64,000 nucleotides of DNA from Eledone cirrhosa (Eukaryota), in assembly GCA_964016885.1 (NCBI GenBank), contig OZ024742.1, forward strand, positions 306,218,001 through 306,282,000, written 5' to 3'. Shown one piece after another: positions 2,432 to 43,922 of the stretch. Numbering within the stretch: position 1 is the first letter of the stretch; each line of letters begins with the position of its first letter. The notes under the pieces were generated by a model. That model searched no databases. It was not told the origin of the DNA and saw nothing but the letters and a program-made list of their open reading frames with translations. A program made the translations under genes and the position numbers.

Positions 2432-2468
<37 letters not shown>

Positions 2469-2621
2469 CGTTGACAAATATATCAATATGCCCAGACATG
2501 CAGATATATTGCCGTTGGTATGACAGTGTGGTTTTAGCTCAATGTAGGATAACTAGTATACTACAGAGCCGTTATAGTTATAGGAATAACCATAGAGTGC
2601 TTAGAAATACATTGTTTTATT

Positions 2622-2668
2622 AGCTAACAGTGTTTCATCCATACACCATGGCAGGAATCATCAGAGCC
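2622..2668 (-). ncRNA. Minimal type I hammerhead (F2)
   Basis: GGCT-CTGATGA-TTCC...GGAT-GAAA-CACTG-TT-AGCT on the minus strand. Confidence 0.65.
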
Positions 2669-4126
2669 TATAAACATGAGTATATCAGCAGTTGCATGCT
2701 CCATCGAGCTGCGTCACCAGAACAAGGTTAAAGGACCAATAGGGGGGTCCCGAGGCCAGCGCTATATGGAAAAAGACAGAATACATGATGCACATAATGT
2801 CATAAAATGTCTTAAAAATTTAAAGATTTAAAATTACACCAAAGTTTTATCACTTAAATGGTGCAATAGATGATAAAGAGGTTGGGAGAGGGTAGCAAGG
2901 GATGAGTGAGGATATTACTCAGCATGATCAGAAACAATAGGGAAATAATAAAAAAATAATAATAAAAAGTACAAAAATACAGGGATAAGAAAAGAGATAA
3001 ATATAAAAATACAAAACAATAAAGGAACAAAAAACCCGGAACCCCCCTCCCACTACCCCCAAATTATGAGACAGAGGAAAGCATAGATGCATCAAAGCAC
3101 AAGCAGTGCAAACACAGGGTGCACAGGCAGATTATGAGAGATTGCAAGCATGAGTCTGTGAAAAGAATAGTTGGTTAGCAGTGGTGCAGCCTTACATGTA
3201 TGATAGTCCATATGAGGGATGGTGTACTCCAATTATATCGCCTTGTAACAGGTCGATTCTCCTTATCATATCCGCACCCTACGAACCACATCGATATGTT
3301 CCAGTTCCGAACGTTAAGTGAGATAGCACTATTTTTCCAAAAGCTATACCCAGGGGATTTATCACCATAGGCGGTCAGGGAAATACACCTAAATCTAAAA
3401 TAAAAAATAAAAGAATGTACTAAGAGTTAAAGAGATGTATGGCACATATACAGCCGGTACAGATGTGAGAAAATTGAAAACACGCCAGGCCCGCAGAAAC
3501 TGGCATTCACCAAATCCTCACGTTCGGTCGCTCAATCCAATGTGCCAGGTGAAATTCACTGTATGTCCAAGTTGGCGTTCAACCAATGTATCGCACCGCA
3601 TACAACTGTGCCACTATTCTTTTGACAGACTCATGCTTGCAAACTCTCTTAATCTGCCTGTGCACTCTATGTTTACACTGGTTCTGCTTCGATGCATCTA
3701 TTCTTTGCTCTGTCTTATATTCTGGGGGGGATTTCCGGGCTTTTTGTTCCTTTATTGTTTTGTATTTTTATATTTATCTCTTTTCTTACCCCTGTATTTT
3801 TGTACGTTTTTATTATTTTTTTTAAAATTATTTTCTTATTGTCTCTGATCATGCTGAGTAATACCCTTATACATCCCTTGCTATCCTCTCCCAAACTCTT
3901 CATCATCTATTGCACCATTTAAGTGATACATTTTTGGTGTAATTTTTAGTTTTTAAATTTTTAAGATATTTTATGACATTATGTGCATTATGTGCATAAT
4001 GTACTCTGTCTTTTTCCATATAGCGCTGGCCTCGGGACCCCCCCCCCCCCCCCTGCTGATCCTTTAACCTTGTTCTGGTGACGCAGCTCGATGAAGCATG
4101 AAACTACGGATATACTCATGTTTATA

Positions 4127-4173
4127 GGATCTGATGATTCCTGCCATGGTGTATGGATGAAACAATGTTAGCT
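4127..4173 (+). ncRNA. Minimal type I hammerhead (F2, stem I mismatch)
   Basis: GGAT-CTGATGA-TTCC...GGAT-GAAA-CAATG-TT-AGCT. Confidence 0.55.
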
Positions 4174-4214
4174 AATAAATCAATGTATTTCTAAGCGCTC
4201 TTTGGTTTTTCCTA

Positions 4215-4270
<56 letters not shown>

Positions 4271-4770: not shown

Positions 4771-4844
4771 ATATATATATATAAAATAAAATAAAATAAA
4801 ATAAAATAAATAAGTCAAATGATTAAAATTTAGCTTCGTTTATT

Positions 4845-4899
4845 ACTGCTATATATATTTCGGTGACAGCCATCTTTGGCTGTGACCTCTTCAGACAGT
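4845..4899 (-). ncRNA. Minimal type I hammerhead (PLE-A left arm)
   Basis: ACTGT-CTGAAGA-GGTCACAGCCA/TGGCTGTCACC-GAAA-TATATA-TA-GCAGT. Confidence 0.85.
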
Positions 4900-5900
4900 C
4901 CTAATTAGTGTGGTATAGACAAGTACATATGCTGTTGAGGTGTATAACTTTGTCAATACTCTGATATGCCCAGTTCCTGGTTGGGTTGTTATTTCACTGA
5001 GGAACTGGAATCATATGAATTCAAACAAACGAATTTCGGTGTCAAAGGGCCTCTTCTCCTCTCATTGGTCAGTTGTTAGAACATTCCTCCTTCAAAAGTC
5101 TATAGAAATTCGTTCTGAGGCAAGCCAATCTGTAGTTGTTGTTCTTGTTATTGTTAGGTACATCTGACCTCTATTCTTGTGTTCGTAGTTTTGTTATTGT
5201 TGGAGTTAGCTTAAAAAAAATTGATAAAGTGGCAGAAGGAATAAGATAATAAACGAACAAAATAAAATAAATGTCAAACTTCCCATTGGTCAGTTTTGAG
5301 AGCATTCCTCAGTCCAAAGTCTATAGAAATTCTTTCTGGGGTTGGGCTCCCTGTAGAGTTTGTGTTTAATATTGTTAAGTACATCTGACCTCTACCCTTA
5401 TTTTGGTAGTGTTGTGGTGTTGTGGTGAGCTTATGTCTTGCTGCTGCTGACAATTTAGAAGTATCTGTGTGTGTGTTTCTTCATACCACTTGCCACCATC
5501 ACCCGTGGTGGTGGTGGTGGTGCGGGGGTTTTCTTCCATGTATATGAAGAAATATAAGGTAATAAAATGAAGAAAACAGAAAATAAATAATAAATAGAGA
5601 ATAAAGAATAAATGAAAAATTAATGAAAAAGTAATGAAAAAGTAATGAAAATGAATATGGAGAAGTGAAAAATAAAATGAAGATTCAAATAAAGTAAGAT
5701 AAAGTGTGTGTGTGCTATAACCAATCTCAAGGTCAGAAATATGTTGGATAGATTGGTATGAGGAACAAGATGATAAAAGAATAAGATAATCAAATAAAAT
5801 GTGTTTGTGTTATAACCAATCTCAACTTAAAAATAAATATAAGGTAATAAAGTGGAGAGAACAGAAAACAAATAACAAATTAATAATGAGAAATCAAACT

Positions 5901-7851
5901 TGAGATCAATGCGACAGCTTACAGGGTTATATCTAGACTCGGCATAGAGGACAGGACGGCCCCATACCAACCAAGGTAGCCGCGGATTATCCTTAAAGAT
6001 CACAAGCCAAACTTTGAGTCCGACCTCCCTGTCAGACTAATAGCCCCCTCCAGATCTGATCTAGGGATCGTCAGTAAAAGAATACTAGATAGGATTCTGC
6101 CCAAGCTTCGGAAGAAAACTAAATTACAGCAATGGTCATGCACGGGAGAAGTAATAAAATGGTTTAAGATACTACATGAGAAAAGTAAGACTAGCTTTAT
6201 ACAACTGGATATCGCAAGCTACTACTCCTCAATTTCACCCATAGTACTCAATAAGGCCCTATTTTTTTCGCGATGTCCAATACGGACCTAACCCGAGAGG
6301 ATCTGAGCATCATCCACGCCAAACGAAAGAGCTTAATCCGTTTCGATGGAGACCTTTGGACCAGGAGTGATTGGCCAAATAACTTTGACATCACGATGGG
6401 CTCCAGCGACTCAGCACAGGTAACGGACCTGGTTGGGCTCTTCGTGCTGAAGCAGATAAAAGATAAAATCCCCTGCCTGGGCGGCGCATTATATCGGGAC
6501 GATGCTCTATTCATAGTATATGACCACAGCACCAATATGTTGGAGGGAATGAGGAGGCGTATGCGCCATTTCTTTATAAACCAGGGCCTCAGTATAGAAC
6601 TAGACCCAAATAGGAAGGTAGTTAACTTCCTAGACACCACCCTAAAACTGAACACCGAACAACATATAGTCCGAAACGCCGGGATGGGGATGGCCCAACG
6701 GACACCCACACCCGCGTTACCCGGGGGGGGGGGGCGAACCCTATCAACACAGGCAGAACAGAAACAAATAGGCACCATGAGCCCGACACCACAACACAGG
6801 CGTTGGTGACTAGTACGCTTAACCAGCAGATGAAACCCAATATGAGTAGCAGTCTCAGGGGTGACGCTAACCACCTCAGGACCGACGACCCCAACCGCAG
6901 GACACGTGGGGGGGGGGACCACCCCACAATAGATCTCCCAGTGCGGGCAACTACCACCCCACAGATTCGGGCCGTGAAGATAGCAATACGCATAGCGCCC
7001 TAAGGGGAAGCAACAGTGCAGGAACCACCAGCAACCCAACAAATCTCCAACAACTCACAACGCCCCCGTCCCTAAAGAACAGCTTGGCCCGATCATTCTT
7101 TGGAGCACTTGATAAATGCTTCCCGAGGGACCATAGATACCACAGGATCTTCAACAGACACACTGTGAAGCTCTCGTATTCCACCACGAGAAATATGGCC
7201 CAACACATAGCATCAACAGGAGTAGGCTTAAAAACCAGACACAACCAGAAGATGGCAATACAAGCACTCAGCAGAACCATGTGAAAGGAGGGAAGGGCGG
7301 ACGCAGTGCCCACCCAAGAAACCCAAACAGACCCCCCCCCCTCCCACCGTGCCTGGGGGAAGACCACCATGTAACACCTAACGGGAACCCCAATCTAGGC
7401 ACGCAGAGGTCGACCACCCTCTGCAACTGCAGAAACCCCGAATCATGCCCCCCTCCTTGGTAATGAATACCTTAAGAAGAACCTAGTATACGGTTGTAGG
7501 GTTAAAACACCCAACTCCGAACACCTGTACATTGGAGCCACATCAACGAGCTTTAAAGTCCGCTGTAACAGCCATTGCCATTCCTTCAATAAGGAGGCCA
7601 AAAGGAAAAGCACGGCTCTCTCCGACCTGATCTGGAAGCTTAAGCTGGACAGGACCCCGTACTCTCTGGCCTGGTACATAATCAGGAAAGTACCACCCGA
7701 TAAAGGGGGATCTGGCATATGCAAACTATGCCGGAACGAGACGCTCGAGATACTAAGAGGTGGAAGCGGCCTGATAAACCTCAGAACCGACTTCTTCGGG
7801 ACATGCAGACACCTCAGGGCCGGGACCTTCCTCAAGATATATGGACAGTAG
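5901..7851 (+). pseudogene. PLE reverse transcriptase + GIY-YIG endonuclease, frameshifted and internally deleted
   Basis: LKDHKPNF..PVRLIAP, QLDIASYY, FDITMGSSDSAQVTDLVG, LYRDD, NFLD, KLSYSTT, CNCRNPESCP, NLVY..LYIGAT, CKLC, TCRH; stop at 7849-7851. Confidence 0.93.
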
Positions 7852-9123
7852 CAATACAAGAAGATGTGAACTCCCCTCAAGCTATAGGGACTTCTCCAGA
7901 ACATGTAGACACCTCTCGGCCAGACATCCCTCAAGCTATATTGGCAATAACAACACCCTAGGTTGAGAACTCCCCTCAAGCCATATGGACCAACCCAGGC
8001 TGAGCAGACACGATGATAGCCTAGAGATTGATTCTGACACAGCCATTATAATTTGGCCAACTTCTTTATAACACACACATTTTAACTTACTTGATTTTTG
8101 ATTATTCAATTTTTCAATTTTTGAAGTTTGATTTCTCATTATTAATTTGTTATTTGTTTTCTGTTCTCTTCACTTTATCACCTTATATTTATTTTTAAGT
8201 TGAGATTGGTTATAACACAAACACATTTTATTTGATTATCTATTTTTTTACCATCTTTTTCCTCATACCAATCTATCCAACACATTTCTGACCTTGAGAT
8301 TGGTTATAGCACACACACACTTTATATTACTTTATTTTAATCTTTATTTCATTTTTCACTTCTCCATATTTATTTTCATTACTTTTTCATTACATTTTCA
8401 TTAATTTTTCATTTATTCTTTATTCTCTATTTATTATTTATTTTCTGTTTTCTTCATTTTATTGCCTTATATTTCTTCATATACATGGAAGAACCCTCAT
8501 CCCCCGCACCACCACCACGGGTGATGGTGGCAAGAGGTATGAAGAAACACACACACAGATACTTCTAAATTGTCAGCAGCAGCAAGATATAAGCTCACCA
8601 CAACACCAACAACACTACCAAAATAAGGGTAGAGGTCAGATGTACTTAATAATAGCAAACACAAACACTACAGGGAGCCTCACCCCAGAAAGAATTTCTA
8701 TAGACTTTGGACTGAGGAATGCTCTCAAAACTGACCAATGGGAAGTTTGACATTTTTTTTATTTTGTTCCTTTACCATCTTATTCCTTCTACCATTTTAT
8801 CAATTTTTTTGAGCTAACTCCAACAATAACAAAACTACGAACACAAGAATAGAGGTCAGATGTACCTAACAATAACAAGAACAACAACTACAGATTGGCT
8901 TGCCTCAGAACGAATTTCTATAGACTTTTGAAGGAGGAATGTTCTAACAACTGACCAATGAGAGGAGAAGAGGCCCTTTGACACTGAAATTCGTTTGTTT
9001 GAATTCATATGATTCCAGTTCCTCAGTGAAATTACAACCCAACCAGGAACTGGGCATATCAGAGTATTGAAAAAGTTATACACCTCAACAACATATGTAC
9101 TTGTCTATACCACACTAATTTGG

Positions 9124-9178
9124 ACTGCCTGAAGAGGTCACAGCCAAAGATGGCTGTCACCGAAATATATATAGCAGT
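9124..9178 (+). ncRNA. Minimal type I hammerhead (PLE-A right arm)
   Basis: Stem I ACTGC/GCAGT, CTGAAGA, 10-bp stem II, GAAA, palindromic TATATA stem III. Such minimal HHRs are typical of PLEs. Confidence 0.88.
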
Positions 9179-9348
9179 AATAAACGAAGCTAAATTTTAA
9201 ACATTTGACTTATTTATTTTATTTTATTTTACATTACTCCGTAGTAACCAAACCAACCTGCACACTTCGCCGAGTGCTCCAATCTGCATACTGATGTGTT
9301 GGTATACAACCAACATATACTAAAAAAATATATATATATATATATATA

Positions 9349-10138
9349 GTAATAATAATAAATTTGAAGACTAAAATCCAAAGAGGGCTCAATAAGGATA
9401 AATATATATCAAATATATAAAAACCGTAGAGCAAATATTTATTAAAATAACAGATGAAAGTTTAAGCAAAGAATCGCTGCTTTCACCCTTAACGGGATCT
9501 TCTGCAACTAACAAAGTCAATCTGTAAACGCAGAAGTGGATATTTCAAAAAACGTTGCAACCGGAGGAAGACAGGAAGACGATACTTTGGTTCGTGGTAA
9601 CGTTCGCTGGCAAAGAACGGGAAAAAACGAATATAATACGTCATAAATAGGAGCGGTGAAAAACAATTACGCGCAAAGACAGAACCACATTTATGGTATA
9701 AAAGAGGTCGTAGACTAATGTTCTCTTAGGTGGTTCATAGAGACGTTCTCTGGCAATGAACGAAAAAAACGAAGATAATACGTCATATGTGGAGCGTGGA
9801 GAACAATAGCACGCAAAGACAAAACCACGTAAATGGTATAGCAGAAGTCGTAGACTAAAATTCTAACTAGGAGACCGAATGAATCTCCGCTACAGAGTTA
9901 AGAACAAAGTAAATAAATACAATACAGAAGAAATAGAAATAAATAAATACATACACGCAAACAAATACGGACATACACAAGCACGTTTCCACGAACCAAA
10001 GTATCGTCTTCCTGTCTTCCTCCGGTTGCAACGTTTTTTGAAATATCCACTTCTGCGTTTACAGATTGACTTTGTTAGTTTCAGAAGATCCCGTTAAGGG
10101 TGAAAGCACCGATTCTTTGCTTAAACTTTAATCTGTTA

Positions 10139-10143
<5 letters not shown>
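9349..10143. mobile_element. F1 fold-back element
   Basis: Long left arm with tail (minus strand); short tail-less right arm 9983-10143 inverted relative to about 9440-9605. Confidence 0.85.
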
Positions 10144-10210
<67 letters not shown>

Positions 10211-10214
<4 letters not shown>

Positions 10215-10829
10215 AATTTACGTATCGTATATTTGGCAATATACCGTATGTTTAATTAAAAACATTTAGAAGACCATACGCTATCAGTTTTAAAGTGACT
10301 ATGTCACTTACTTCTTTTCGTCGAAAGAAGGGAGAGAAGCTGACAGTCTGTTTCACTGGTTAGCGGTCATCAGAGCCACGTACTCCCCTGCTTTCACTGA
10401 ATATTATAGAAGCTGGATTCTTATGGAATTCCAATTATAATCAGGAGCTGATTATACAGAGCGATTGTCGGTCGAGCAAAAATTAGGTATCAGGATTGGT
10501 GCTCTGAAATAGCGATGTATACATGAATTTCTGTATAGTATATTTGGCAATATACTGTATATTTAATTTAAAACATTTAGAAGACCATACGCTATCAGTT
10601 TTATAATCAGCTCCTGATTATTACTGGAATTCTATAAGAATCCAGCTTCTATAATTTTCGGCGAAAGCAGGGAAGTACGTGGGTTTGATGAACGCCAACA
10701 AGCATATAATAGACTGCCAGCGTCTCTCGTTCTTTCGCCGAATAGTGTATGGTCTTCTAAATGCTTCTAATGAAATTACGGCATATTGCCAAATATAGTA
10801 TACATACATTCAAGTATACATCGCTATTT
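10211..10829. mobile_element. HHR-containing element: ~311-nt direct redundancy plus inverted arm
   Basis: 10212-10290 repeats at 10523-10602; 10603-10829 is inverted relative to 10322-10457 and 10508-10595. Confidence 0.8.
10338..10377 (-). ncRNA. Type I hammerhead
   Basis: GGCT-CTGATGA-CCGCTAACCAGT-GAAA-CAGACTG-TC-AGCT; stem II is weak. Confidence 0.6.
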
Positions 10830-10959
10830 ATATATATATATGTGTGTGTGTGTGGGTGTGTGTGCGTGTGTGTGTGTGTGTGTGCGCGCAGAATGGTTAT
10901 TATATAACTAAATTTGCATTTTTTAAATACGTATAATGAATTTAGCAGAGTCCAGTAAG

Positions 10960-11160
10960 CGGCAAGCATTTACAGGGGAAAGTAGATTAAATCGACCCTA
11001 GTGTATAACTGGTGCTTTATTTTACTTTATTTTATCGAACCCCGTAAGGTTGAAAGGCTGAGCTAACCTCGGCGGGATTTTAAATCAGAATGTAAAGGCC
11101 ATAATTCTATGCTTAGAAGCATGTTGTCCGACGCTCTACCGATACAGCTAATTCACCACC
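10960..11160 (-). mobile_element. tRNA-derived cephalopod-type SINE
   Basis: Reverse complement of the family at 35455-35670 (…CCGCCGAGGTTA…CCTTTCA.CCTTACGGGG…). Confidence 0.8.
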
Positions 11161-12581
11161 CTAGGGAAATTGCATAATTAAAAGTAAGAAGATAAGATAA
11201 AAACAGAAATAATAGAAAAAAGGACAAAATAAAAGGAAAAAGAAAGTAATGGAGGAAAGCTCAGGGAAAACGATGATAAAATTAGGAGTGAAACAATATA
11301 TAAAAAACAGCGATTGTTGACAATTGGGGTGAATTGATAAACCCGTTAGATTGTCAGACTGAATATCATTCGATATATGTTTTGGCCTAGATTACACTGA
11401 GTTCAAATTCCAGGAAAGCGAATGTAATTTTATATCTTTACAGAATTGATAAGTAAAGCACCAATTAAGTACTTGGCTGGTTCTTCTATGTCTTTCTTTC
11501 TTGGAATTAGGTACGTTGTGCAATGGAAAATGTCTGGAGAGACTACTCACAGCGGTCTTTGTTCCGTTAATAGTGGATTATTGAGTGATGGCCGAGCATC
11601 AACATTTCATAAGAAACCTTATATGTCACTGAAAATGTCCAACGATGGAAAGATGTGCAGTATAACACTGATAGGAAATACGTAAAAACAAAAATGCCTG
11701 TGTTGAGATGTAGTGAAATCAGTTAGTTCGACTACAACACTTCAATACATTTATTTTGTCGTCTCCTGTAATATGGAAAACCAATATGGGCCTCATCCCG
11801 ATTTGAACTAATGAAACGTAATAGGACGATATTTTCTACCGCTTTATCAGTTCTACTAATCCGGAAGACGTTCTGAGAATTGTAAAACATAAAAATAGAA
11901 AATAAACAGAATTGAGATTGGGAAAATAATCAAACAAACAAATACCAGCGTAAACGAAAGCAACAAGGACGGAAGTCTTCATATAATGGACAAATGACAA
12001 TACAAAATTAGAGAAAGTAATTTTAAAAAAAAAATTAAATGAAAAAAAGAGGTTGAAACAAAAGAGAGGAAAGAATTGTAAATGAAAAACTGGAGTCACA
12101 AAATGAATTAAAAATAAGTAAAATTAAAAACAAATTAAGTGAAGAAAGTAATTTGAAAAAATTAAAAAGTAAAAATTAAGAAGAAAAGAAATGAAAAGAA
12201 GAAAAACGAATATAAACAAAAAAAAGTCGAGACAAAAATGTAATTACAAAAAAATTGAATTTAAGAAGGGGGTAAAAATCAAATTATATAAAGAAAGAAA
12301 GAAAAATTCGTACATGGAATTAAAAGTGGTCTGTGGTTTAGAAATGTGCTTGGCAACAACGTCATTTTGATTTCGATCTGTATTCCCGGTACCTTTGTCT
12401 GATATTTTGTATGGATTCATCAGTGCTTCTTGAACGAGATTTGACAAACGGAAATTGTGAGAATGTCTGTCTTAAGAAAATATATGAACTAATATGAACT
12501 AATGTGAATCCAAAATATATATATTTCATCTGGTATGAAAATGCTAAAAGATTAACTGTAGGACAGAGGAACGTTATAATA

Positions 12582-12770
12582 ATTGTTTTTACTTTTGGCA
12601 TAAGGCCAGGAATTACCCCAGTGCATTATTATTGCTTTATTTTATCGATCCCGTAAGCATGAAAGGCAAAGTAAACCTCGGCAGGATTTGAACTAAGATC
12701 GTAAAGGGCTATTACTCTATGTGCCAAAGCATGGTGTCTCACGCTTTACCGATACTGCCAATCCACCGTT
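12582..12770 (-). mobile_element. tRNA-derived SINE
   Basis: Same family as 35455-36070. Confidence 0.85.
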
Positions 12771-12779
12771 ATAATAATG

Positions 12780-12905
12780 ATTTCTAATTTAGGCACAAGG
12801 CCAGCAATTTTTGGGGAGGGGAGGAAATGTATAGACCCCAGTATTTGAATGGTACATACGTAAAAGAGAAAAGCAAAGTTGACTTCGGCTGTATTTGAAC
12901 AGAAA
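12780..12905 (-). mobile_element. Truncated SINE copy
   Basis: 3' part and GCAAAGTTGACTTCGGC..TTTGAAC match the family. Confidence 0.65.
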
Positions 12906-13009
12906 ACATAAACACCTGTACATAAATGACACAAAACATTTTTTCTTGTATATAAATAAATATATATATAACAATATGTATATAAATAAATATATATATA
13001 TAACAATAA

Positions 13010-13046
<37 letters not shown>

Positions 13047-13183
13047 AAGGTTAAACAAGGTTCAATGAATAAATCAAAGAATGAGTTTTAAAATAGATTG
13101 GAAGCACTCAACTGTGTGGTTTTCCGGAGTTATTAATATTAATTAAAAATATTAACAAAAATAGACATTCGTGTGATCAAGTA

Positions 13184-13250
13184 TATTTTATTATACATAT
13201 TTCAGAGGTACTGAGCTAACTTCAACAGTACGTCCTCGTCAGATAAAATA
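13184..13250 (-). ncRNA. Minimal type I hammerhead (F4)
   Basis: Stem I TATTTTAT/ATAAAATA; CTGACGA; GTACTG/CAGTAC in stem II; GAAA-TATGTA-TA. Confidence 0.82.
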
Positions 13251-13526
13251 AGATGATGCATGACATACACTGACATAGTAGATGGTTAAGATCCAGTCAT
13301 GTTAGTGAATAAGATATGACAAAACTCAATATTTATATACCTTAAGATTGAGACTTGAAAAATTTTACATAGGGTGCGTGTGAGAAAGTTTAAAAATACA
13401 TAATAGCAATTTACATAACTGTTAGAGATTCAAATAATTTAAATTATTGAAGAAAGAAGAAAGAAGAAAGACAGAGGGAAACCGATGAGGAGAAAATATA
13501 GTTACTAGAAGTATAGAAAGCAAAAG

Positions 13527-13873
13527 ACTATCACATACAACTATATTGGTGCAACTTCATCGACATTTAAATCAAGATTTTCGAATCACAAATGCTCTTT
13601 TTCGAATCCTAATAGGGTAATCTTTGACTTCTTTATCACAACTTAAAAGACAAAAATTGTAAATACTCGATTTCTTGGTGGAAGCTGTGTAATAGTCGAA
13701 TCTACTTGAATTCTTCAATATAATCTAACTGCAATCTCTGTACCATGGAGACCCTATTAATAATTACTAATTATGAAAATTTAATTGACAAAAAAAGTGA
13801 ATTACTCTCAAATTGCCTTCATAAAGCTTCCTCAACATACCAAGCCTCGCAAAAAGTCAGGGAAAAACAGTAA
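13527..13873 (+). pseudogene. PLE GIY-YIG endonuclease C-terminal remnant (absent from ORF track)
   Basis: Manual translation: YIGATSSTFKSRFSNHKCSF … CNLCTMETLLII…LIDKKSELLSNCLH…*. Confidence 0.85.
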
Positions 13874-15961
13874 ATAAATAGGTTCTAATTTTTTGACGTT
13901 TCTTATCAACTGAGTGCGTAAAACATTATAACACATTATAAAACCTTATAATAATTTTTTAATTTTTTATTCTTTTAAGATAAGATTAATGTTAGATTAA
14001 TGGGTTCTATATAGGTATACAAACATATAAATTCTTAACATGATCTCTTGATGAATATGCATATCATTTGATTGTGTAGATACATTTAATTTGATTGAGA
14101 TTCTTGTATATTTTTTTTAATATATAGCTTATATGGTAAACAGTTCTAATGAACCGTAAATCATTCATGCATTTATGTATTTGTGTATTTATTCTGTTGG
14201 AGTATGATAGTTTTACGATTCAGGATGTTTGATTTATATATTTATATTTATTTATATTTATTTATGTATATGCGTCGCACACGATCCTAGTCGAGAAACT
14301 TTTTTCACTTAACTTGATGTAAAACTTCAATTATAACTTTACTAACAATGATTGTATTTATTATTTATTATATGTATATGGATCACTAATATCGTCTTGC
14401 GTTCCGAACAGAGTACTCTATATATATTTGGACAAATGTGTATATCTAGTATAATAACATGCTTCTGGCTACATTTATAAGTACTTTAGATACTTAAGGA
14501 CATTCTAGTGTTAAAATTGTTAAATATTTTCTAAATTATATAAGGATTATTATTTTTTTATTTAATTAAATTCGGATTACCTTCGGGTCAATGAAAATCT
14601 TAAGTTTTCTCTTTCTCGTGTTTGTAGACACTTTAAATATGATATTATACTAAAATATAGATCCTTTAAAAAATGTTCTTGTATTTTTAAATTATATAGC
14701 TTAGATATTTGGCACTTTTATGATCGCAAACAATTTACTTTTTTACTTTGAATCTCGTTCTTATCCTTATGATTCACGAAGTTTGATTTGTATATGTATA
14801 GTATATATGTATTACATGATCCTAACATAATAACCTTAATTTTTAACAATATTAACAGTAACTTATTTATTATATTATATTATATTATGTTATGTATAAC
14901 TGACTAATATCTTCTTGAACTTTAGACAATATGCTCTTTGTGTATATATTTAGACAAATGCATATATCTAATTTAATAATACCATTTTTTAAGTTTAATT
15001 ATAAGGCCTTTAGATACTTTAAGGCATTCTAATTGTTAATTTTTAATTTTTAAGGTTATAACTGTAATTATTTTCTAAATTATATAATGTGAATTATTTC
15101 AATATAAATTTTTTTTTTCATATAATATAAGATAATATACTTTAATATGGATTACCTTCGAGAGGATGAACATATTAAGTATTCCTTCTAATGTTTGCAA
15201 ATACTTTAAATATGATTTTATAAATTAAATATGATAGTATACTTTAATATTAATATAGATATTTATAATCTTTTATAGCCTGAAATATATATACATTTTG
15301 ATTAATTCATTATTCTAAACTAACATAAATGATTTGAAATTTAACGGTCAGCCGGATACGTTTGGATATATATCGTGTATATAATTAATTGTTAGTATAT
15401 TTCTAATTAACTAAGGACTCGAAATTAAACCTTCATATAATTACACCCATATATATTTAATATTTAGATAGATGGATACTTCTAGATAATTCAATAATTC
15501 AAAGATTCGAGTTTAATCTTTCACAAAGCTATGCCTAAATGTTTATTCATGTGTTTGTATAGATATATATAATTTTTGCATTATCCAATCACACCCTATT
15601 CACCCACGACAATACAACCCTCCTCTCTATGCTTTATACTATAAAAATGATTACTCCTTGTCTCTCTATCCTTGATCAATTCTCTTTTGCTTTCTACACT
15701 TCTAGTAACTATATTTTCTCCTCATCTGTTTCTCTCTGTCTTTCTTCTTTCTTCAATAATTTAAATTATTTGAATCTCTAACAGTTATGTAAATTGCTAT
15801 TATGTATTTTTAAGCTTTCTCACACGCACCCTCTGTATTATATGTAAATTTTTTCATGTCTCAATCTTAAGGTATATAAATATTGAGCTTTGTCATATCT
15901 TATTCACTACCACGACTGAATCTTAACCATCTACTATGTCAGGATATGTCATGCATCATCT

Positions 15962-16028
15962 TATTTTATCTGATGAGGACGTACTGTTGAAGTTAGCTCA
16001 GTTCCTCTGAAATATGTATAATAAAATA
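15962..16028 (+). ncRNA. Minimal type I hammerhead (F4)
   Basis: Same fold with CTGATGA core. Confidence 0.82.
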
Positions 16029-16069
16029 TACTTGATCACACGAATGTATATTTTTGTTAATATTTTGAA

Positions 16070-16131
<62 letters not shown>

Positions 16132-16197: not shown

Positions 16198-16200
<3 letters not shown>
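16132..16200 (-). mobile_element. Short tail-less F1 fragment
   Basis: Matches 9440-9502. Confidence 0.65.
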
Positions 16201-16236
<36 letters not shown>

Positions 16237-16327
16237 CGAAGGAAATGTGGTAAGGAACCAGGTGGACCATAACGCACCAAAGTACTCAATACTTGAGGTA
16301 GTAGAGTGGGTAATAGGAACCAGTAAG

Positions 16328-16421
16328 ACCCCGACAGCTGAGCTCAAGCCGTTTCGACGGCTAATTCTGGACTAAATGAAAATTTATCCTGGTATTTAAA
16401 TAGCCGATCTTCTCAAGGGGT
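16328..16421 (-). ncRNA. Type I hammerhead, U3-A8 core variant (F3)
   Basis: Reverse complement of 17042-17135. Confidence 0.8.
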
Positions 16422-17041
16422 AATTCCATATATGGTCAAAGTGATTGTCAAAAATCAGTAGTAATTCTGTGGTTGCAAATTAGTAGGGGAGATGGTGGCT
16501 AAACCTGCCAGTAGGAGAAAGAGGGGAGGGGGTGGAGTAGACCCAATCAAGCGTTGGTAGTGCCAGCTACAGCTGGGCATGAGGTCAAAGAAGATACAGG
16601 GGAGGGGGGGGGAGGAAGTCGGAACGGTAGGTAGAACAATGGGGGGTAGAAATAGGAAAAAAAAAAAAAAAAAAAAAATACTGAGAGTGAAGAAAGGCAA
16701 ATAAGTGTAAAGAAAAGTAAAGTAAATTAAATTTTACTTTACTTTTCTTTACACTTATTTGCCTTTCTTCACTCTCAGTTTTTTTTTTTTTTTTTTTTTT
16801 TTTGCCTATTTCTACCCCCCATTGTTCTACCTACCGTTCCGACTTCCTCCCCCTCCCCCTCCCCTGTATCTTCTTTGACCTCATGCCCAGCTGTAGCTGG
16901 CACTACCAACGCTTGATTGGGTCTACTCCACCCCCTCCCCTCTTTCTCCTACTGGCAGGTTTAGCCACCATCTCCCCTACTAATTTGCAACCACAGAATT
17001 ACTACTGATTTTTGACAATCACTTTGACCATATATGGAATT

Positions 17042-17135
17042 ACCCCTTGAGAAGATCGGCTATTTAAATACCAGGATAAATTTTCATTTAGTCCAGAATT
17101 AGCCGTCGAAACGGCTTGAGCTCAGCTGTCGGGGT
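17042..17135 (+). ncRNA. Type I hammerhead, U3-A8 core variant (F3)
   Basis: Stem I ACCCC/GGGGT; core TTGAGAA; stem II GATCGGCTA/TAGCCGTC; GAAA; stem III ACGGCT/AGCTGT with TGAGCTC loop; GUC site. Confidence 0.82.
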
Positions 17136-18374
17136 CTTACTGGTTCCTATATATATATATATATATATATATAGCAAACAAGGGAAAGTATCCTGACGGC
17201 ACCGCCAGTTTTTGTTCTGTATACAAATATACGTTAGCCGATATTCATAAGCGTAAAAATTAAAAGCTTTTAGGTTATTTCGTCTTAGTATGTAAGAGGA
17301 ATGAGCTCCTGTGACGACGATTAATGGACGAGAAACGGTGCCGCTCTTATTTGGCTGCCAAGAATAAACCGTAAAAATTCGTATTGAAGCTATAACATAT
17401 TTATTTACGTGGACATCTCGTTATGATCCAAAATTGAACCCCGGTCACGTACCAATCACATTATTTCAGTTCATCACTACCCCTCATATATAACGTTCCT
17501 TCATATTTTCCCATTTCTTATTCATTCGTTTTCTTACTCTTCATTGATAGGGAGTCGAAATATCAGATCCCTTTTTCTATTCGGCAAAAATATTTCCAAT
17601 CTACACAGACATTTTTGTGTTTATATTTTTTCAACTACTTGTCTTTTTTTTTTTTTACTTTTTACCTACTGATTTAAACCCTCACGTTTTAAAAGTTTAT
17701 CTCTCTTTTCTGAATGTATCTATGTATATCTTTCATCGAGGTATATTGGCAATGAATGGAACCACCGTAAACCGAAACAAAAAAAAAACACCTTTTCGAA
17801 CGAATATTTTTTTCGAAATTTGTGTTTCACTGAGTTACAGACAGTTTTGTCTGGCACCGTCAGAAATGCAATGAACCAGTGATTTGTCCATTGAAAGTAA
17901 ATAACCAAGTATGCTATTGTTTACAATCTGCGATGTCAAATATGATAAACATATATAAAATATAAAAGAAAAAATACACAAATAATGATAATATAACAAA
18001 GCGCAAGAAAACAACACAATAACAAGTAAAAGTAAATAAATAACAAAATTGAAAAACCTAGTAAGAATGGCAGAAATAATAAACACATGAATATATTGGT
18101 GAAAGTGAAGAAAAAATGTGAGGGGAAAGAAAAGGAAAAAATACAAAATAATAATAAATAAGAGAAAATAATATATAGAAAGAAAAATATAAAAGAAAGG
18201 AATGAAAGATAGAATGGATAAATAAATGAATGAATGAGAGAAAAAGTTATGTGTACATTTATATATAGAAAAAAAGGAAAGGTAACAGCTAACAAAATGT
18301 AAATAAATAATCGAAGGAAATAAATAAATAAACATGTAATCCAATAGAAAACTGTCAAAGACATTATAGTGAAT

Positions 18375-24597: not shown

Positions 24598-24649
<52 letters not shown>

Positions 24650-24750
24650 TTTGAGTATATGTTGGTTGTATACCACACCTTAATATGCAGATTGGAGCAC
24701 TCGACGAAGTGCGCAGGTTGTTTGGTTACTCCGGAGGAATTTAAAATAAA

Positions 24751-25273
24751 CTCAAACAGACCCGGGGACCCCCCACCGTTCCCGGGGTAAGACCACCATG
24801 TAACGCGAACAGGAGCCCCACACTAGGCACGCATAGGTCGACCACCCTCTGCAATTGCAGAAACCCCGAATGATGCCCCCTTAGTAATGAATGATTAGGA
24901 AGAACCTAATATACGGATGTAGGGTTAAAACCCCCAACTCCGAACACCTCTAAATAGGAACCACATCAAAGAGCTTTAAAGACCGTTGGTATAACCATCG
25001 CCATTCCTTCAATAGGGAGCCAAAAGGAAAAGTACGGCCCTTTCCGACCTGATCTGGAAGCTTAAGCTGGACAGGACCTCGTACTGTCTGGCCTGGTCCA
25101 TAATCAGGAAAGTTCCACCCGATAAAGGGGGATCTGGCATATGAAAACTATCTCTGAACGAGACCCTCGAGATATTAAGAGGTGGAAGCCGCCTGATAAA
25201 GCTCAGAACCGACTTCTTCGAGACATGCAGACACCTCAGGGCCGGGACCTTCCTCAAGCTATATGGACAGTAA
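24751..25273 (+). pseudogene. PLE GIY-YIG endonuclease remnant
   Basis: CNCRNPE, NLIYGCRVK, FKDRWYNHRHSF, TCRH motifs with multiple stops. Confidence 0.88.
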
Positions 25274-26266
25274 CAACACACTGAGATGTGAACTCCCCTC
25301 AAGCTATAGGGACTTCTCCAGAACATGTAGACACCTCTTGGCCGGACCTCCCTCAATCTATATGGGCAGTAACAACACCATATGTTGGGAACTCCCCTCA
25401 AGCCATAGAGGCCCACCCAGGCTGAGCAGACACCATGATAGCATAGAGATTGATTCTGACACAGCCTTTCTAATTTGGCCAACATCTGTATAACACACAC
25501 ACATTTTATTTTATTTGAATCTTCATTATTTTTATATTTCATTTGTTTTCTGTTTTCTTCACTTTATTGCCTTCTATTTGTTCATAGGCATGCCCTCCCC
25601 ACCACCACAACGAGAAATGGTGGCAGGATGGATGAAAAAACACACACAGATACTTCTTAATGTCAGCAGCAGCAAGACATAGGCTGACCCCAGCACCAAT
25701 ACAACTACCAAAATAAGTGTAGATGTCAGATGTACTTAACAATAGCAAAAACAAACACTACAGGTAGCCTCATCCCAGAAAGAATTTCTGTAGACTTTTG
25801 ACTGAGAAATGCTCTCACAACTGACTAATAGAAGGAGTGACCTTGCCAATCTTTCTAACATTGAGATTGGGTATAACACACACACATTTTATTTGATTAT
25901 CTTATTATATTTTGTTCTTTTACCATCTTATTCCTTCCACCACTTTATCATTTTTTTGGCTGACCCCAACACCACCACCACTACCAACATAAGAGTAGAG
26001 GTCACATGTACTTAACAATAACAAGAACAACCACTATAAATTGCTTCGCCTCAGAACGAATTTCTATAGACCTTTCACTGAGCAATGTTCTCACAACTGA
26101 CCAATGGAAGGAGATGTCCTTCGACGCTGAAATTCGTTTGTTTAAATTCATATGATTCCAGTTCCTCAGTGAAATAATAACCCAACCAAGAACTGGGCAT
26201 ATCAGAGTATTGACAAAGTTAAACACCTCAACAACATGTGTACTCGTCTCTACCACACTAATTCGG

Positions 26267-26321
26267 GCTGCCTGAAGAGGTCACAGCCAAAGATGGCTGT
26301 CACCGAAATATATATAGCAGT
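26267..26321 (+). ncRNA. Minimal type I hammerhead (PLE-A family)
   Basis: Core identical to 9124-9178. Confidence 0.87.
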
Positions 26322-26389
26322 AATAAACGAAGCCAAATTTTAAATATTTGACTTATTTATCTTATTTTATTTTATAAATATATATATAT

Positions 26390-26390
<1 letters not shown>

Positions 26391-26480
<90 letters not shown>
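26391..26480. repeat. (GATA)n microsatellite
   Basis: Direct inspection; a shorter (GATA)n lies at 30370-30393. Confidence 0.98.
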
Positions 26481-29400
26481 TGTTTCTTTTATTTGCCACC
26501 AGGGCATCAAAAGTGGCACAAGTACAATGGGGGAGTTTACAAAACAAGGCGTCCTCAATAAGGAGGAGGCAATAACAATATATAAAAATAAAATAAAATA
26601 TAACAAAAAATAAAATTTATAACAAAGTCCTCAATAGAGAGGAGGCGCCTTGGGGGGTCGCACACACCCCCGAAAAAAGTGTGCAACCCTTCTCCTCAGG
26701 AGCACAGAGAAGGGGTGCTCCCTTGGTCTTTCATCTTCCTCACCTATAGTCTGATGTAGAGTGAAGGCCCATTCACACGGGCCATTCTCGCCACTTTCAC
26801 CCATCTTTCATAGAAACGGCTGGGGTGCAGCACCTCTCTCTCCATCCTGATCCTTCTTCCGAAATGATATCGGAAGAAACGGACCAGTTGTTGGCCAGAG
26901 AGAAAGGTGTCTGACCTCAGTCCTTTCAGACGCGTCCACCATACAACCTCTTTCGCCATGGCTATTACGCACAGAAACACCGCCTCTCCTTCGTTTTTGA
27001 AGAGGGGAGGCGGCTTGATCGTTACAATAGACTCGGTGGTCAAGCGGATTGGTCCCACCCTTGACAGCAGTTGTTCGACATAACCCCACAGATCGGCAAT
27101 GCCCGAGCAGTGTACCAATGCGTGTGCAACGGTTTCCTCGTCGCACACGCATCTGGGACAGATCTTTTTCGATGGGTCCCTACCCGGGCGCCCGTGTCTG
27201 TAGAGCCTTTCTCGAACGGGCAGAGCCCTTCTGTAGCATTGCCAGGCCAGGGACCTCTGGAAGTTGTCCATGGGTCCCGGGCTGAATGTCCTACCGAACA
27301 GGTTGGCCAGTTCGTCTTCCTCCATGCCTAGGGCTTCTCCGAGGGCGTCGTCGCACCTGCTAACCACCAGCCCTCTATAGAATGACGAGGTGGATTCTCC
27401 ACTGACAGCCGGGTCCGCCTGCCAGAGAGCCGCGAGTGCCTGGGCACACTCGGTGTGCCAGGCGCCCAGTTTTCTCGGTCTTTGCTTGACCCAGGATTGC
27501 AGCTCGGTGAGTGAGACGAGTCTGGGAAAGGCTCGCCTCACAAACGGGGCCCACACCGGTTGACCGGAGAGGAATACCTGAAGGTGCCGTAGCCTTAATG
27601 CGTGTTTACGTATCATTAGCCACGGCATACCCAGCCCTCCTTTCGAAGGGTGTTGACAGCAGATGGATCTCCTCACCATAGGAGCCCGCTTCTTCCAAAG
27701 GAATTGGAAGAGTGCGCGCTCCATTTTGGCGAGCGTTTCCCTTGGGCAAGGCACAACGGTCAGGCGGTAGTAGATGACGGACGCTATATAAGTGTTCGCC
27801 ACCTCCGCCCGTCCTTTCAGGGACAGTTTGCACTCGGCCCACTTCTGGGTCAGTGCAAACATCCTGTTCGTCACCTCACCCCAGTTCTTCTCCACCTGGA
27901 GGTCTGGTCCGAACCAGACCCCGAGCTACTTCACCGGGCCCTCCGTCCAGCGCCCGACGACGCCATCGGAGGGCATCGATCTGCCCCTCCACGTGCCGAG
28001 TTGCAGACCGATCGACTTGTCCCGGTTCAGCTTAGCCCCTGTAAACCTTTCGTACTCCTCCAGTAAGGTGCCGATCGCCCTAATTTCCGAGGCCGTCGAC
28101 ACCATTACTGTTACGTCATCGGCGTAGGCTGACACCGCTTTCCGCAATCCCGGTTCCAACGGGATGCCCTGCAACAACTCCAACTTCCGCAGCAGTGGCT
28201 CTAGAGTCATTACATACAGAAGGGAGGAGAGAGGGCACCCCTGTCGGATGGACCGCGCGATTTCGAACGGTTCCGAGAGGTAGCCGTTCACCTTGACCCT
28301 AGAGCAGATGCGGCTGCTGTGCATGGCATTGATCCAGCCCCTGAAAACGGGTCCGAAGCCTGCCGCCGCTAGCACCGCATCCAGGTAATCATGGTCGACC
28401 CTATCGAATGGCTTAGATTGATCCAAGTTGATCAGGGCCCCACCAAAGCCGGGTTCGTTCCCAACCCTCTCTATTATGTATCGCATGAGGTGGAGGTTAT
28501 CGTGGATGGACCTGGACGGGATAGCACATGTCTGCGCATCTCCCACCAGGTTGCCCACGACAAGCGCCAACCTCTTTGCTAGCACCTTGGCCAAAATCTG
28601 TAACTCTGTATTTAGCAGAGTTATGGGCCTGAAATTATTTATATCGTCCCCCTTGTTCTCGTCCTTCCTCACTAGCGTGACTACGCCCTTGGTCACAGCA
28701 CAGGGAATTCTCCCGTTCTGTTGCCAGTTGCAGTAGACCGCCTCGAGGAGTTCGGGGAACAAGTCCGGCATAGCTAGATATTGTTCGTATAGAAGACCAT
28801 CGAGACCCGGGGATTTGCGTTTGCCGCATTGGCTCAGCACGTCCTCTATCTCAGCGGCTGAAATCGGCTCCTCGCAGGACTTCGCCTCCCTGTCCGAGAG
28901 ACGCGGCAGGCCGTCGAGGTATGGACCGAAGTCCACGTCCCCAACCGGCCCCCCGCCCCTTCCGAACAATCCGGCAAAGTGCTTTTGAAAAGCCTCGCAC
29001 ATCTGCTTAGGTTCAAGGATCACCCGTCCATCCTGGTCTCGCAAAGACCGGATAGTGGATCTGCTCCCTCTTTTGGCTTCTGTCACGCGGGCCCAGCTAA
29101 CAGCTTTGGTCCCCTCGTTTCCCAGAGCACGTATTTTGCTTCGGACGATGCAGCCTTCGTGTTTCGCGTCGAAGAACTGGCCCAGGGCCGTTCTCAACGC
29201 TAGCACTCTGGCCACGTCGCCGCTTCTAATTGCCTCTTCTACACTATCTACCAACTCCCTTTCCTTCCTATTTCTATTTGAGGCTAACTCCTTACTAAAT
29301 TCTATAGAGACTACTCTAATCTCTCTTTTGAGAGATCCCCACCATCTGCTGTTGACGATGGCTCCCGTCAACCGCTCCTTAACTAAAGTGCTAATCCGGT

Positions 29401-30368
29401 TCCTGTAATCCTTACTTGCCGGTAAGGACAAGTTGAGCTTCCAGTAACCGGGTCCCTGTCTATGAGTTCTGTCAAGGTTGACCATGCAGGTCACTAATTT
29501 GTGGTCTGAATAGCCAACCATGCGCATTTTTGGACAACTTAAAAAGTCCTTATCTTTAATTCTAACTATGAACCTATCTAGGTACGACCTAGATGATCCG
29601 CTACGATTTGCCCCTGTAAACCTTTCGTACTCCTCCAGTAAGGTGCCGATCGCCCTGATTTCCGAGGCCGTATGTATGCATGTTTTTGTTTTTGTGTGGT
29701 GTTTTTTGTTTGCTGTTGTTGTGAGCTCTTTTGTGTTGGTGTCAGTGTCATGTTTTGGGGAGGGGTTGTTTTCATTTGTGTGTCTGAGGTGTGTTTTCTT
29801 TTTTTTCTTTTGATTGTGTGGAAGTGCTCCTCCTCGTCTGACGACGAACTAGGGTCATCATCCGCGTTGGAGGGGAGGGGTATATTTTCGGGTTGTGTTT
29901 GTGGTGCGGGTGTTTTGGAAATTGTTTTTGTTTTTTGAGTGGAGGGGATGGGTTGGACATTGTTTTGTTTTGGTTTGAGCTGTGGTCGTTGCCATGGCAA
30001 CGTCAAGTTGTCGGTTAACAGGTGGAGAGAATTCTTCCTCTGGCTGACCTTTCTTCTTGACCTCTGCTACTGTGACAGTGGCAGGGGGAAGCTGTAAGTT
30101 TATCTTCCCCTTTCCTCCTTCGAATTTTGGTGAAGAAGCTTCGGCCATTTAAAAAAAAATATTGACTTTTCAACAAGAAAACAATTTTTTTTTTTGGTTT
30201 AACTATTTCGCCTAAAGGCGTAGAATATTTTGAGAGACTGACCAGATCAAAGTTTGACCTGGCAGTCCCTCTACAAAATGGTACAAAAATTAAAGTTAAC
30301 AGACAAGAATTTCTATAGAAATTTAAACAGAACTTACTCAGCAAGTTATACGCGTGTGTCCATCCCAG
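26481..30368 (-). mobile_element. Tx1/L1-clade non-LTR retrotransposon insertion with rearranged 5' part
   Basis: ORF2 homology; AATAAA about 10 nt before (TATC)n at the 3' end; (TATC)n also at the far 5' side; low-complexity ORF1-like segment at 29672-30360. Confidence 0.85.
26744..29605 (-). pseudogene. Tx1-like ORF2 (end of AP endonuclease, RT, C-terminal Zn knuckle) with one in-frame TAG
   Basis: SYLDRF, SDHK, GPGYWKLN, NFRPITLLN, IRQGCPLS, YADD, KGGLG, CPRC..ETVAHALVHC. ORFs 27926-29527 and 26744-27895 are in the same frame, split by the stop at 27926-27928. Confidence 0.95.
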
Positions 30369-35315: not shown

Positions 35316-35454
35316 GCTCAAAGCCCAATCACCCTCCCCTTTACCCTCCCCTCTCGCCTATGACACCAGAACTCTTGCCGTCGCTCCCCTACTTTCTTTC
35401 CTTTTGTTTCCCTTTTTCATTATTGTCGTCATCATAGTTGCTAGTATTATTATT

Positions 35455-36070
35455 ATGTGGATTGGCAGTATCGGTAGAGAGTCGGACACCATGCATTGCA
35501 GCATAGAGTAACGGCCCTTTACGGTCTGAGTTCAAATCCCACCGAGGTTAACTTTGCCTTTCATCCTTACGGGGTCGATAAAATAAAGTATCAGTAACGT
35601 ACTAGGGTCGATTTAAACGACTTTCCCCTCCCCCAAATTATTGGCATTGTGCCTATACTAGGAATCATTAATATTTTGGCAATATAGGTAAAGAGTCGGA
35701 CGCCATGCTTTCTAGCATAGTTACATCCCTTTACGATCTGAGTTCAAATCCCGCCATGTTAACTTTGCCTTTCATCCTTACGGGGTCTATAAATAAAGGT
35801 ACCAGTAATGAACTGGGTATTGCTGGTCTTGTATCAAAAGTAGAAACAATTATTATCGCAGGTGGATTGGCAGAATGGGAGGTGGATTGGCAGTATCGGT
35901 AGAGGGTCGGATGCCATGCTTTGCAGCATAGTGTTACGTCCCTTTGCGGTCTGAGTTCAAATCCTGCCGAGGTTAACTTTGCCTTTCATGCTTACGGGGT
36001 GGATAAAATAAAATACCAGTAATGCACTGGGATAATTGCTGGCCTTGTGCCAAAAGTTGAAAGAATTATT
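35455..36070 (+). mobile_element. Three head-to-tail tRNA-derived SINEs
   Basis: Units at about 35455-35670, 35675-35855 and 35875-36070, with A-box TGGCAGTATCGG, B-box GAGTTCAAATCC and ATT-repeat tails. Confidence 0.88.
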
Positions 36071-37009
36071 ATTATTATTGTTACTGTAAATGATATCATG
36101 ATTAGTAAAATATATTTCCATTTATGTAACTCTTCATTACGATAAAACTCTAACTCCACTGTTCAAAAAAAAAAAAAAGTAACAAACTGAACAGATTTCT
36201 TGAATATCAAATGGTGGCTAATTTCATTTAATAAATTCTACAACACTGCTATGATTTTTACGGAATAAATAAGGAATGCAATCCATCTCCTTGTTGCGTA
36301 AGGATCATTCGATAACACTATGGTGATGATTATTATGATAAAGACAACCATGGTGAGGATTAAGATAATATTGGTAAACATGATAATAACAGTGACTGCA
36401 GTAATAATTTTGATTACCCCCGATTGAACCCAGGATAAACTTATATATATATACTGTATCGATTTCCGTATGTATATATATTTGAGTGCAGAAGTAAATG
36501 ATAAAGTAGAAAATCAAACTTTCCAGCTGTTGTCTTAGGATTGTTAATAAAGAGGATACTGATAATTACGAAAATAATCAGGCAAAGATAAACAGGATGA
36601 AAAATGTAAATACGTTAATGGTGATAAAAGTTTCCATATTTGTCGCATTTATTCACAATAATATTAAAAGTTAGTGTTCATGTAACAAAATACATGAACA
36701 CTATAGTGACTGTTGTTCACAACTGTGTCTAGTTTTACCTACATAACACATGAATATACCACAGAATATTATAAATTTAACAATTATGCAGTTTTAGAGA
36801 TTAGGCATTTTTTTTTCTAGTTCAAACGTTCGCTTCTCAACGACGAAGTTTCAAGCTTGATAGTAATGGATAGCAAGTAGCATAGGACATATTCTAAGAT
36901 TGAAATTTTAGGTAGCATACATTTGTGTTGACATCTCATCTTATTCATATAATATGTATATATATATATATATATATATGGGGTGGGTGGGTATATATGT
37001 GTATATGTA

Positions 37010-40127: not shown

Positions 40128-40218
<91 letters not shown>

Positions 40219-40309
40219 CGAAAGAAATGTGGTAAGGAACCAGGTGGACCATAACGTACCAAAGTACTCAATACTTAGGGTAGTAGAGTGGGTAATAGGA
40301 ACAAGTAAG

Positions 40310-40401
40310 ACCCCGACGGCTGAGCTCAAGCCGTTTCGACGGCTAATTGTACTGAATGAAAATTTATTCTGGTATTTAAATAGCCGAACTTATCAAGGGG
40401 T
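40310..40401 (-). ncRNA. F3 hammerhead, U3-A8 core (TTGATAA)
   Basis: Same fold as 17042-17135, with perfect ACGGCT/AGCCGT stem III. Confidence 0.8.
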
Positions 40402-43914: not shown

Positions 43915-43922
43915 CTTACTTG

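Follow-up and report, generated by a model that had tools for sequence, protein, structure and literature searches.

[quoted passage not shown] Palindromes have been described at the 5' ends of pseudo-LTRs (pLTRs) (PMC3846280), and non-coding DNA has been found captured between pLTRs (PMC3846280); of the non-coding elements that acquire pLTRs in trans, one case on record has two direct pLTRs and an inverted one (PMC8557442, PMC3846280). Biochemical work on the anole Poseidon protein has demonstrated that it cleaves and extends both strands of its target and prefers AT-rich DNA; two internal start sites of its RT define the tail, the RNA 3' of these sites is needed, and uncleaved RNA is used in vitro (PMC11167929). 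As an alternative origin of inverted ends, self-priming has been put forward, with an antisense template on which palindromes act as the priming sites (PMC3846280). A link between retrozymes and PLEs was proposed in PMC4209133 and PMC7229834, suggested again in PMC7761336 and PMC8969392, and is the thesis of a preprint that argues it from co-occurrence and pLTR homology (bioRxiv 10.64898/2026.07.22.740005). RNA circles as templates for PLE copies of more than one unit are already found in PMC4209133. In the literature searched, no description of inverted arms on retrozymes and no paper on cephalopod hammerhead ribozyme (HHR) or retrozyme families was found; the main text of PMC7229834 does not contain the word "inverted", and in bioRxiv 10.64898/2026.07.22.740005 it stands only within a reference title.

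Both the geometry and the PLE hypothesis have been published previously, and the element described here is an added example. It lies at positions 10212-10829 of a 64,000-nt stretch of DNA from Eledone cirrhosa, which was analysed as a whole and is called the window below. An earlier note on this DNA had claimed that the element links retrozyme-like RNAs to PLE machinery; the layout fits such a link, but the link itself is not new, being already in print. The element behaves as a PLE-mobilised non-autonomous insertion. Four of five architectural features of PLE insertions were found, namely a partial tandem of the pLTR type, an adjacent inverted 5'-truncated copy, a 3' extension at one end and a microsatellite target. 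The fifth, a terminus in common with an autonomous partner, was not found among the PLEs of the 64-kb window.

Read on the minus strand from 10603 to 10212, the main arm consists of 1.26 copies of a 311-nt non-coding unit (GC 0.38) with one type I HHR. In a self-comparison, 10523-10603 matched 10212-10292 with 92.6% identity over 81 nt at a period of 311, and inverted matches were obtained between 10356-10456 and 10602-10702 and between 10507-10595 and 10742-10829. This confirmed the tandem period of approximately 311 nt, the minus-strand block order and the joined inverted arm with a decayed HHR (core remnants at 10685-10718) that had been read from the sequence earlier, and coordinates were recovered for each of the blocks A', D, C, B, HHR and A. 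The main arm opens with A' (10523-10603), a 5'-truncated upstream partial copy that forms the terminal redundancy and is the equivalent of a pLTR. It is followed by block D (10507-10522), the internal copy of the 16-17-nt extension that terminates the inverted arm, and by block C (10457-10506), a 50-nt single-copy internal segment that contains GAGCAC and whose first 6 nt pair with its last 6. The 5' part of block B (10402-10456) starts with a 21-nt hairpin (10435-10455), the truncation point of the inverted copy. Beyond the HHR, a 33-nt segment (about 10285-10317) carries a 7-bp hairpin at 10293-10309 and has its first 8-9 nt in common with A', and block A (10212-10292), the 3' end of the main copy, stops 129 nt past the HHR cleavage nucleotide. 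All six frames of 10212-10602 are interrupted by stop codons in a six-frame translation, no frame of at least 120 aa overlaps the element, and the RT plus GIY-YIG frame of an autonomous PLE is absent.

The inverted arm occupies 10602-10829 on the plus strand (228 nt) and reads B-HHR-A-D. By block alignments it is a 5'-truncated copy that aligns to 10456-10213 of the minus strand plus D, and it alone carries the optional 3' extension, or tail, of 16-17 nt (10813-10829). It is not a fold-back arm in the literal sense of the earlier note, because the symmetric parts of the two arms are 145 nt apart and the arm lacks the 33-nt segment and all of block C. The arms meet head-to-head at 10602-10603 with a 2-nt TA microhomology, and as no microsatellite lies in between, a single event is indicated. 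Arm against arm, 29 mismatches were counted in 224 aligned columns when four block alignments were summed (13%, in addition to the 33-nt indel), compared with 6 in about 80 positions (7.5%) for the tandem copies, a difference that is not significant (Fisher p 0.23). Among the three copies of A, that of the inverted arm has 8 private substitutions and the others 3 and 3 (p 0.058). The idea that the two arms were copied from different templates found no support in these two tests.

The left HHR (10318-10401, minus strand) has an exact catalytic core, with the core sequence at 10373-10367, the GAAA at 10354-10351 and C17 at 10342. Helices III and I have 3 bp each, and helix I is continued by a predicted internal loop and long distal stem, which might allow the loop 1-loop 2 tertiary contact that is canonical for retrozymes. 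Helix II is damaged: 3 bp are possible with two extra unpaired bases, and a 2-nt gap is seen relative both to the right arm and to a look-alike HHR at 56484. In a comparison of three sequences no compensatory change in helix II was found, and the activity of the left HHR appears uncertain. Its fold energy cost of 8.0 kcal/mol was rejected as a sign of inactivity, as five other local HHRs span 2.8-12.9 kcal/mol. Chance does not account for the left HHR: a descriptor of core plus helices recovered it and matched only 3 of 5000 dinucleotide-preserving shuffles of the element. Applied to the whole window, the same descriptor yielded 9 real sites, whereas 40 shuffles gave 0.075 on average. A descriptor requiring base pairs at the foot of helix II misses the left HHR, and dropping that rule recovers it.

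The HHR of the inverted arm (10657-10742, plus strand) has a broken core at 10685-10718, although its distal helix I is still well paired. It is changed at C3, in the GAAA box and at U16.1, and by established HHR chemistry it is predicted to be dead. An Rfam search gave no gathering-level match in the whole 64-kb window, recognising neither an HHR of the element nor any other. The matches of an E-value scan were discarded as microsatellite-driven miRNA/scaRNA hits and two long-hairpin miRNA hits, all far under threshold, and a Baculoviridae_NAE match to the block A hairpin at 10525-10545 (E 1.8, 19 bits versus a threshold of 51) was taken as chance. The locus thus has a single HHR per strand and no run of at least two consecutive units that each hold a complete HHR. 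It is therefore unable to excise a monomer and inert as a source of circles, and the element was not filed as a retrozyme.

On its left, the element adjoins an (AT)n(GT)15 microsatellite (10144-10211), the target site and possibly the left copy of a target-site duplication; on its right follows (AT)6 plus an imperfect GT run (10830-10885), possibly the right copy of a duplication of about 40 bp. Counts in the window are 19 for the order (AT)(GT), 2 for (GT)(AT) and 1 for the four-part pattern. The flanking order would favour a target duplication of about 40 bp, without proving it.

The window holds at least six further elements that have inverted arms and 3' ends facing outward, at 2573-4222 (arms 86.5% identical), 4792-9231 (95.9%), 9436-10150 (97.0%), 16313-17150 (98.8%), 40300-43924 (96.3%) and 56237-56873 (88.1%). 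Two of these six flank RT plus GIY-YIG frames, and the broken PLE frames in question (41211-42542 and 6255-7851) sit inside the inverted arms. In the frame 41211-42542 the linker is CxCx5C and CCHH is absent; DKT and an RWR/RWK motif are present in its homologues. These are traits that PMC8557442 gives for the Hydra clade. By these motifs, on which the assignment to the clade rests, the local autonomous PLE frames look Hydra-like. In Pfam, the PLE frame 41211-42539 and three of its homologues went unrecognised. Among 120 listed of the 193 homologues of a local reading frame, one bears a species name, Argonauta hians (37% identity). Hydra-clade PLEs insert into (TA)n, and in the same source the clade is recorded mainly in cnidarians and a few other aquatic invertebrates (PMC8557442). 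The local Hydra-like frames are candidate helpers.

Three HHR-bearing PLE-type families were noted (4772-9328 and 24627-26392; 12949-13527, 15683-16076 and 56944-57299; 2467-4222). In fam1, fam2 and fam4 (fam1 to fam4 and F5 are labels coined in this analysis) the 3' ends, read by eye, lie 53-58 or 149-159 nt past the cleavage nucleotide. In the element, the inverted arm ends at 146 nt, the main arm at 129 nt, and the redundancy starts at 50-51 nt. Fam3 differs, with 3' ends at 15 and 98 nt by eye. With four families and ends read by eye, the likeness in 3'-end spacing between the element and the local families is suggestive only. The three families have tails of 93-106 nt, which exceed the 30-40 nt given in PMC8557442 by a factor of about three. 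The element tail of 16-17 nt is shorter than both the published length and the 83-106 nt of local families. The terminal repeat of fam3 (43780-43924 on the plus strand, 40217-40420 on the minus strand, 1785-2270 and 16200-17173) contains an apparent hammerhead variant, which by eye has a long helix III and a U3-A8-like core and which the descriptor did not recover.

Set against the described systems, the element resembles EN+ PLE insertions in its pLTR, its inverted 5'-truncated copy, its extension at one end and the HHR in the repeat, as well as in its microsatellite target and the palindrome that opens the inverted copy (PMC8557442, PMC3846280). Unlike them, it has no RT or GIY-YIG frame, an internal region of 50 nt and a tail of 16-17 nt. 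The palindrome opens the inverted arm, yet the arm junction is not symmetric about it. With the metazoan non-LTR retrozymes (PMC7229834; bioRxiv 10.64898/2026.07.22.740005) it has in common a non-coding unit within 150-450 nt, a GC content below 50%, a type I HHR, a stable predicted circle, a genomic copy of more than one unit and PLEs in the same genome, whereas its 1.26 units, one HHR per strand, inverted arm and tail set it apart. Non-autonomous PLE derivatives, such as MRC1 and other non-autonomous Chlamys elements, are likewise non-coding and form pLTRs in trans (PMC8557442). However, Chlamys-type derivatives have 3' sequence in common with a known autonomous family, and none was found for the element in the window. 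The N-terminal-EN clade that includes Chlamys is also described as without canonical HHRs (PMC8557442). In Schistosoma, pairs of min-HHRs on opposite strands, 100-700 bp apart, have been read as truncated PLEs (PMC4209133). The two HHRs of the element, about 310 bp apart and on opposite strands, are similar in arrangement, but with its short helix II and its long distal stem in helix I the element HHR is nearer to canonical type I than to min-HHRs.

A second small two-arm element was observed at 56244-56930, with its main arm on the minus strand and an inverted arm at 56647-56873. Its HHR at 56484 is built like the left HHR of the 10212-10829 element, and the last 39 nt of its tail repeat the 5' start of its main arm, which gives a unit of about 430 nt. 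In a comparison of the HHR regions of the two elements, 4 and 0 of 1000 shuffles scored as well under two scoring schemes, a significant likeness, though one partly expected for any two HHRs. Outside the HHR no significant likeness between the two elements was found (862 and 551 of 1000 shuffles equalled the upstream score), and collinearity of D-C-B was tried and was not significant. Upstream of the HHR core both elements have a hairpin with a CTC loop, at a distance of 76 nt in 56244-56930 and 77 nt in 10212-10829, a resemblance without statistical support.

Two properties of the 311-nt sequence bear on whether it is a real unit. As an HHR-sense circle it has a predicted fold of -71 kcal/mol (z -3.4), more stable than all 100 shuffles, compared with a z of -1.4 for the antisense circle. 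Two of 30 control windows (drawn from 58 eligible, 20 shuffles each) scored lower than the element, and both overlap PLE-type elements. The inverted arm, moreover, ends precisely at both borders of block C, the ends of which pair over 6 bp; such pairing, a feature chosen post hoc, was found in 12 of 15512 background 50-mers and in 66 when 2 nt of slack were allowed. No further copy was found in the 64-kb window by BLAST or nhmmer, nor in GTDB genomes (one exact 22-mer), phages or plasmids, these being prokaryotic sets that are little informative. With one HHR per strand and no other copy in the data searched, neither 311 nt as a family unit nor a retrozyme by definition is established. Position 10457 need not mark any junction; in the PLE model it is just the 5'-truncation point of the inverted copy.

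No significant likeness of the element to any PLE terminus in the 64-kb window was found; when block C was compared with eight local PLE tails, the best p was 0.016 and the other seven were 0.24-0.76. GAGCAC was considered as a same-strand link to the PLEs and rejected, since the window has 17 occurrences of it and both PLE tails that carry it do so on the antisense strand. A motif of the type GC[AT]CCAATC, picked after looking, has four matches in the window, three in PLE tails and one in block C, all in sense orientation. A short stem-loop followed by CCAATC is seen at 9276 (plus strand), 24698 (minus) and 13105 (minus), all within tails that belong to two PLE families, and once more at 10502 (minus), where block C starts. 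It is a possible protein-binding signal and may serve as a lead only, given that an unbiased alignment test was weak and the distance to the HHR differs.

We regard as probable, though well short of certain, an old single insertion of a non-autonomous, retrozyme-like and HHR-bearing RNA element of about 311 nt, in effect a mini-PLE, copied in trans by the RT/GIY-YIG protein of a PLE. The candidate enzymes in the window look Hydra-like, and their tie to the element is that of candidate partners only. A source locus elsewhere would have produced an RNA in which the 3' end of the unit continues into its 5' start, in the form of either a tandem transcript or a circle cut by the HHR and religated. 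By analogy with the biochemistry of Poseidon (PMC11167929), both strands of an AT-rich microsatellite would have been nicked and two cDNAs primed from internal sites that lie 3' of the cleavage nucleotide, at 129 and about 146 nt. The sequence itself shows that the left product comprises 1.26 units and passes one uncleaved or religated HHR site, and that the right product, a unit without block C and the 33-nt segment, stops at the 21-nt hairpin. It shows as well that the two meet head-to-head at the 2-nt microhomology. Staggered nicks may have duplicated about 40 bp of (AT)(GT), and later decay has killed one HHR and damaged helix II of the other.

The left product passes one HHR cleavage site, re-enters the unit and ends about 50 nt before the next site. 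A linear monomer cut at both HHRs yields this product only with a template jump, whereas a circle or an uncleaved tandem suffices. A circular template is compatible with the locus, not required by it. Within the preferred explanation, a linear tandem or a template jump is the likelier course, and a circle has somewhat less than an even chance. The earlier proposal of a circular or tandem RNA inserted in the manner of the window's PLEs is therefore upheld in part. The two-arm process is supported because outward 3' ends and inverted arms are shared with the PLEs of the window, and continuity of a tandem or circular template because the main-arm copy passes one HHR cleavage site and re-enters the unit; a circle is not established. 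It is also conceivable, but doubtful, that the locus is the scar of a true 311-nt circular retrozyme that a Hydra-clade PLE copied from both target strands, with block C as a minimal RT-binding element. As with the RNA that Poseidon needs, block C would then sit immediately 3' of the start site, and the arm cDNA would have made one lap and halted on meeting C again.

Overall, a non-autonomous family was judged the probable origin and a one-off deleted PLE a rather unlikely one, with a small residue of belief for all remaining readings together. The deleted PLE would have been a long autonomous element, consisting of inverted pLTR, truncated pLTR, body and pLTR, that lost nearly all of its body, during copying or later, and kept 50 nt; the 311-nt period would be accidental and there would be no small RNA family. 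The outer geometry of such an element is identical, microhomology deletions of Penelope copies have been described (PMC3846280), A' plus D amount to 97 nt and so equal the local PLE tail length of 83-106 nt, and no second copy was found in the window or the prokaryotic collections. Chance loss sits less well with the self-closing block C (12 of 15512 in the background), with an arm that ends at both of its borders and with the unusually stable circular fold. The element HHR, furthermore, combines a long distal helix I with a 3-bp helix III, whereas the HHRs at 9129 and 15970 have a weak 2-bp helix III, and inspection of the six frames by eye revealed no Hydra-like N-terminal peptide.

Partial duplication and inversion in place of a solitary HHR repeat, by replication slippage or repair, would suit a context rich in microsatellites and palindromes as well as the 2-nt junction microhomology. 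Such a local rearrangement is nonetheless improbable, since both 3' ends face outward into microsatellite, like those of the six other elements, and block D of the arm occupies the place of a tail; the A of the arm, with its 8 private substitutions against 3 and 3, is not clearly the daughter of either other copy. A DNA transposon of the MITE type in TA-rich DNA, bounded by terminal inverted repeats that are some 70 nt long, might be read from A (10213-10283) and 10743-10812, which are 86% identical as inverted terminal repeats. The ends, however, are unequal by 16-17 nt, a third copy lies internally, each arm holds an HHR and the geometry equals that of nearby PLEs that encode an RT; the equal terminal inverted repeats and the short, fixed target duplication of a MITE were not found at 10212-10829, and this origin is very improbable. 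Least credible of all is a chimeric or fold-back read in the assembly. The region is dense in repeats, and PLE structures are known to trouble assemblies (PMC8557442), but artefactual copies would be nearly identical, and here the divergence is 13% plus a 33-nt indel between the arms and 7.5% between the tandem copies. Such divergence all but excludes an assembly artefact and points to an old insertion.

The element bears on two questions, how PLEs form their tandem and inverted ends and whether PLEs mobilise animal retrozymes by way of RNA circles. A 311-nt non-coding unit with the full insertion signature of a PLE is a small extra line of evidence, and if a family exists it could serve in vitro work as a compact substrate; a lone decayed copy that lacks relatives settles nothing. 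Should the doubtful reading as the scar of a circular retrozyme be true, 10212-10829 and 56244-56930 would be mechanistic evidence that PLEs mobilise retrozymes, beyond the phylogenetic, and the 311 nt a substrate for asking whether PLE tandems come from RNA circles. A better retrozyme candidate, judged on sequence, is the array at 52935-54247 (plus strand), which consists of about 2.5 tandem copies of a 528-nt unit flanked by (AT)n. Two type I HHRs with a long helix III, with cores at 53390 and 53918, lie in its consecutive units.

The window as a whole is AT-rich, dense in microsatellites and packed with retroelements. Between 4700 and 10890 a chain of elements was observed, each inserted in (AT)n beside another. 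At each of its two ends the fam1 PLE borders on an F5 copy at the 3' end of the latter; the 10212-10829 element comes directly after. Its neighbour at 9348-10151 likewise has two arms (97%). The internal repeats of this neighbour are 140 nt long and its tail about 87 nt, and a degenerate HHR may lie near 10082-10120; it was also noted at 1229-1723, 51168-51594 and 55960-56223, and a near-perfect fold-back copy is centred at about 56059. Broken frames of a non-LTR retrotransposon with RVT_1 and zf-RVT domains lie at 26744-29848 on the minus strand. A dispersed repeat of about 200 nt, which we take to be SINE-like, occurs at 10974-11162, 12570-12822, 35446-36075, 58953-59081 and 63727-63929.
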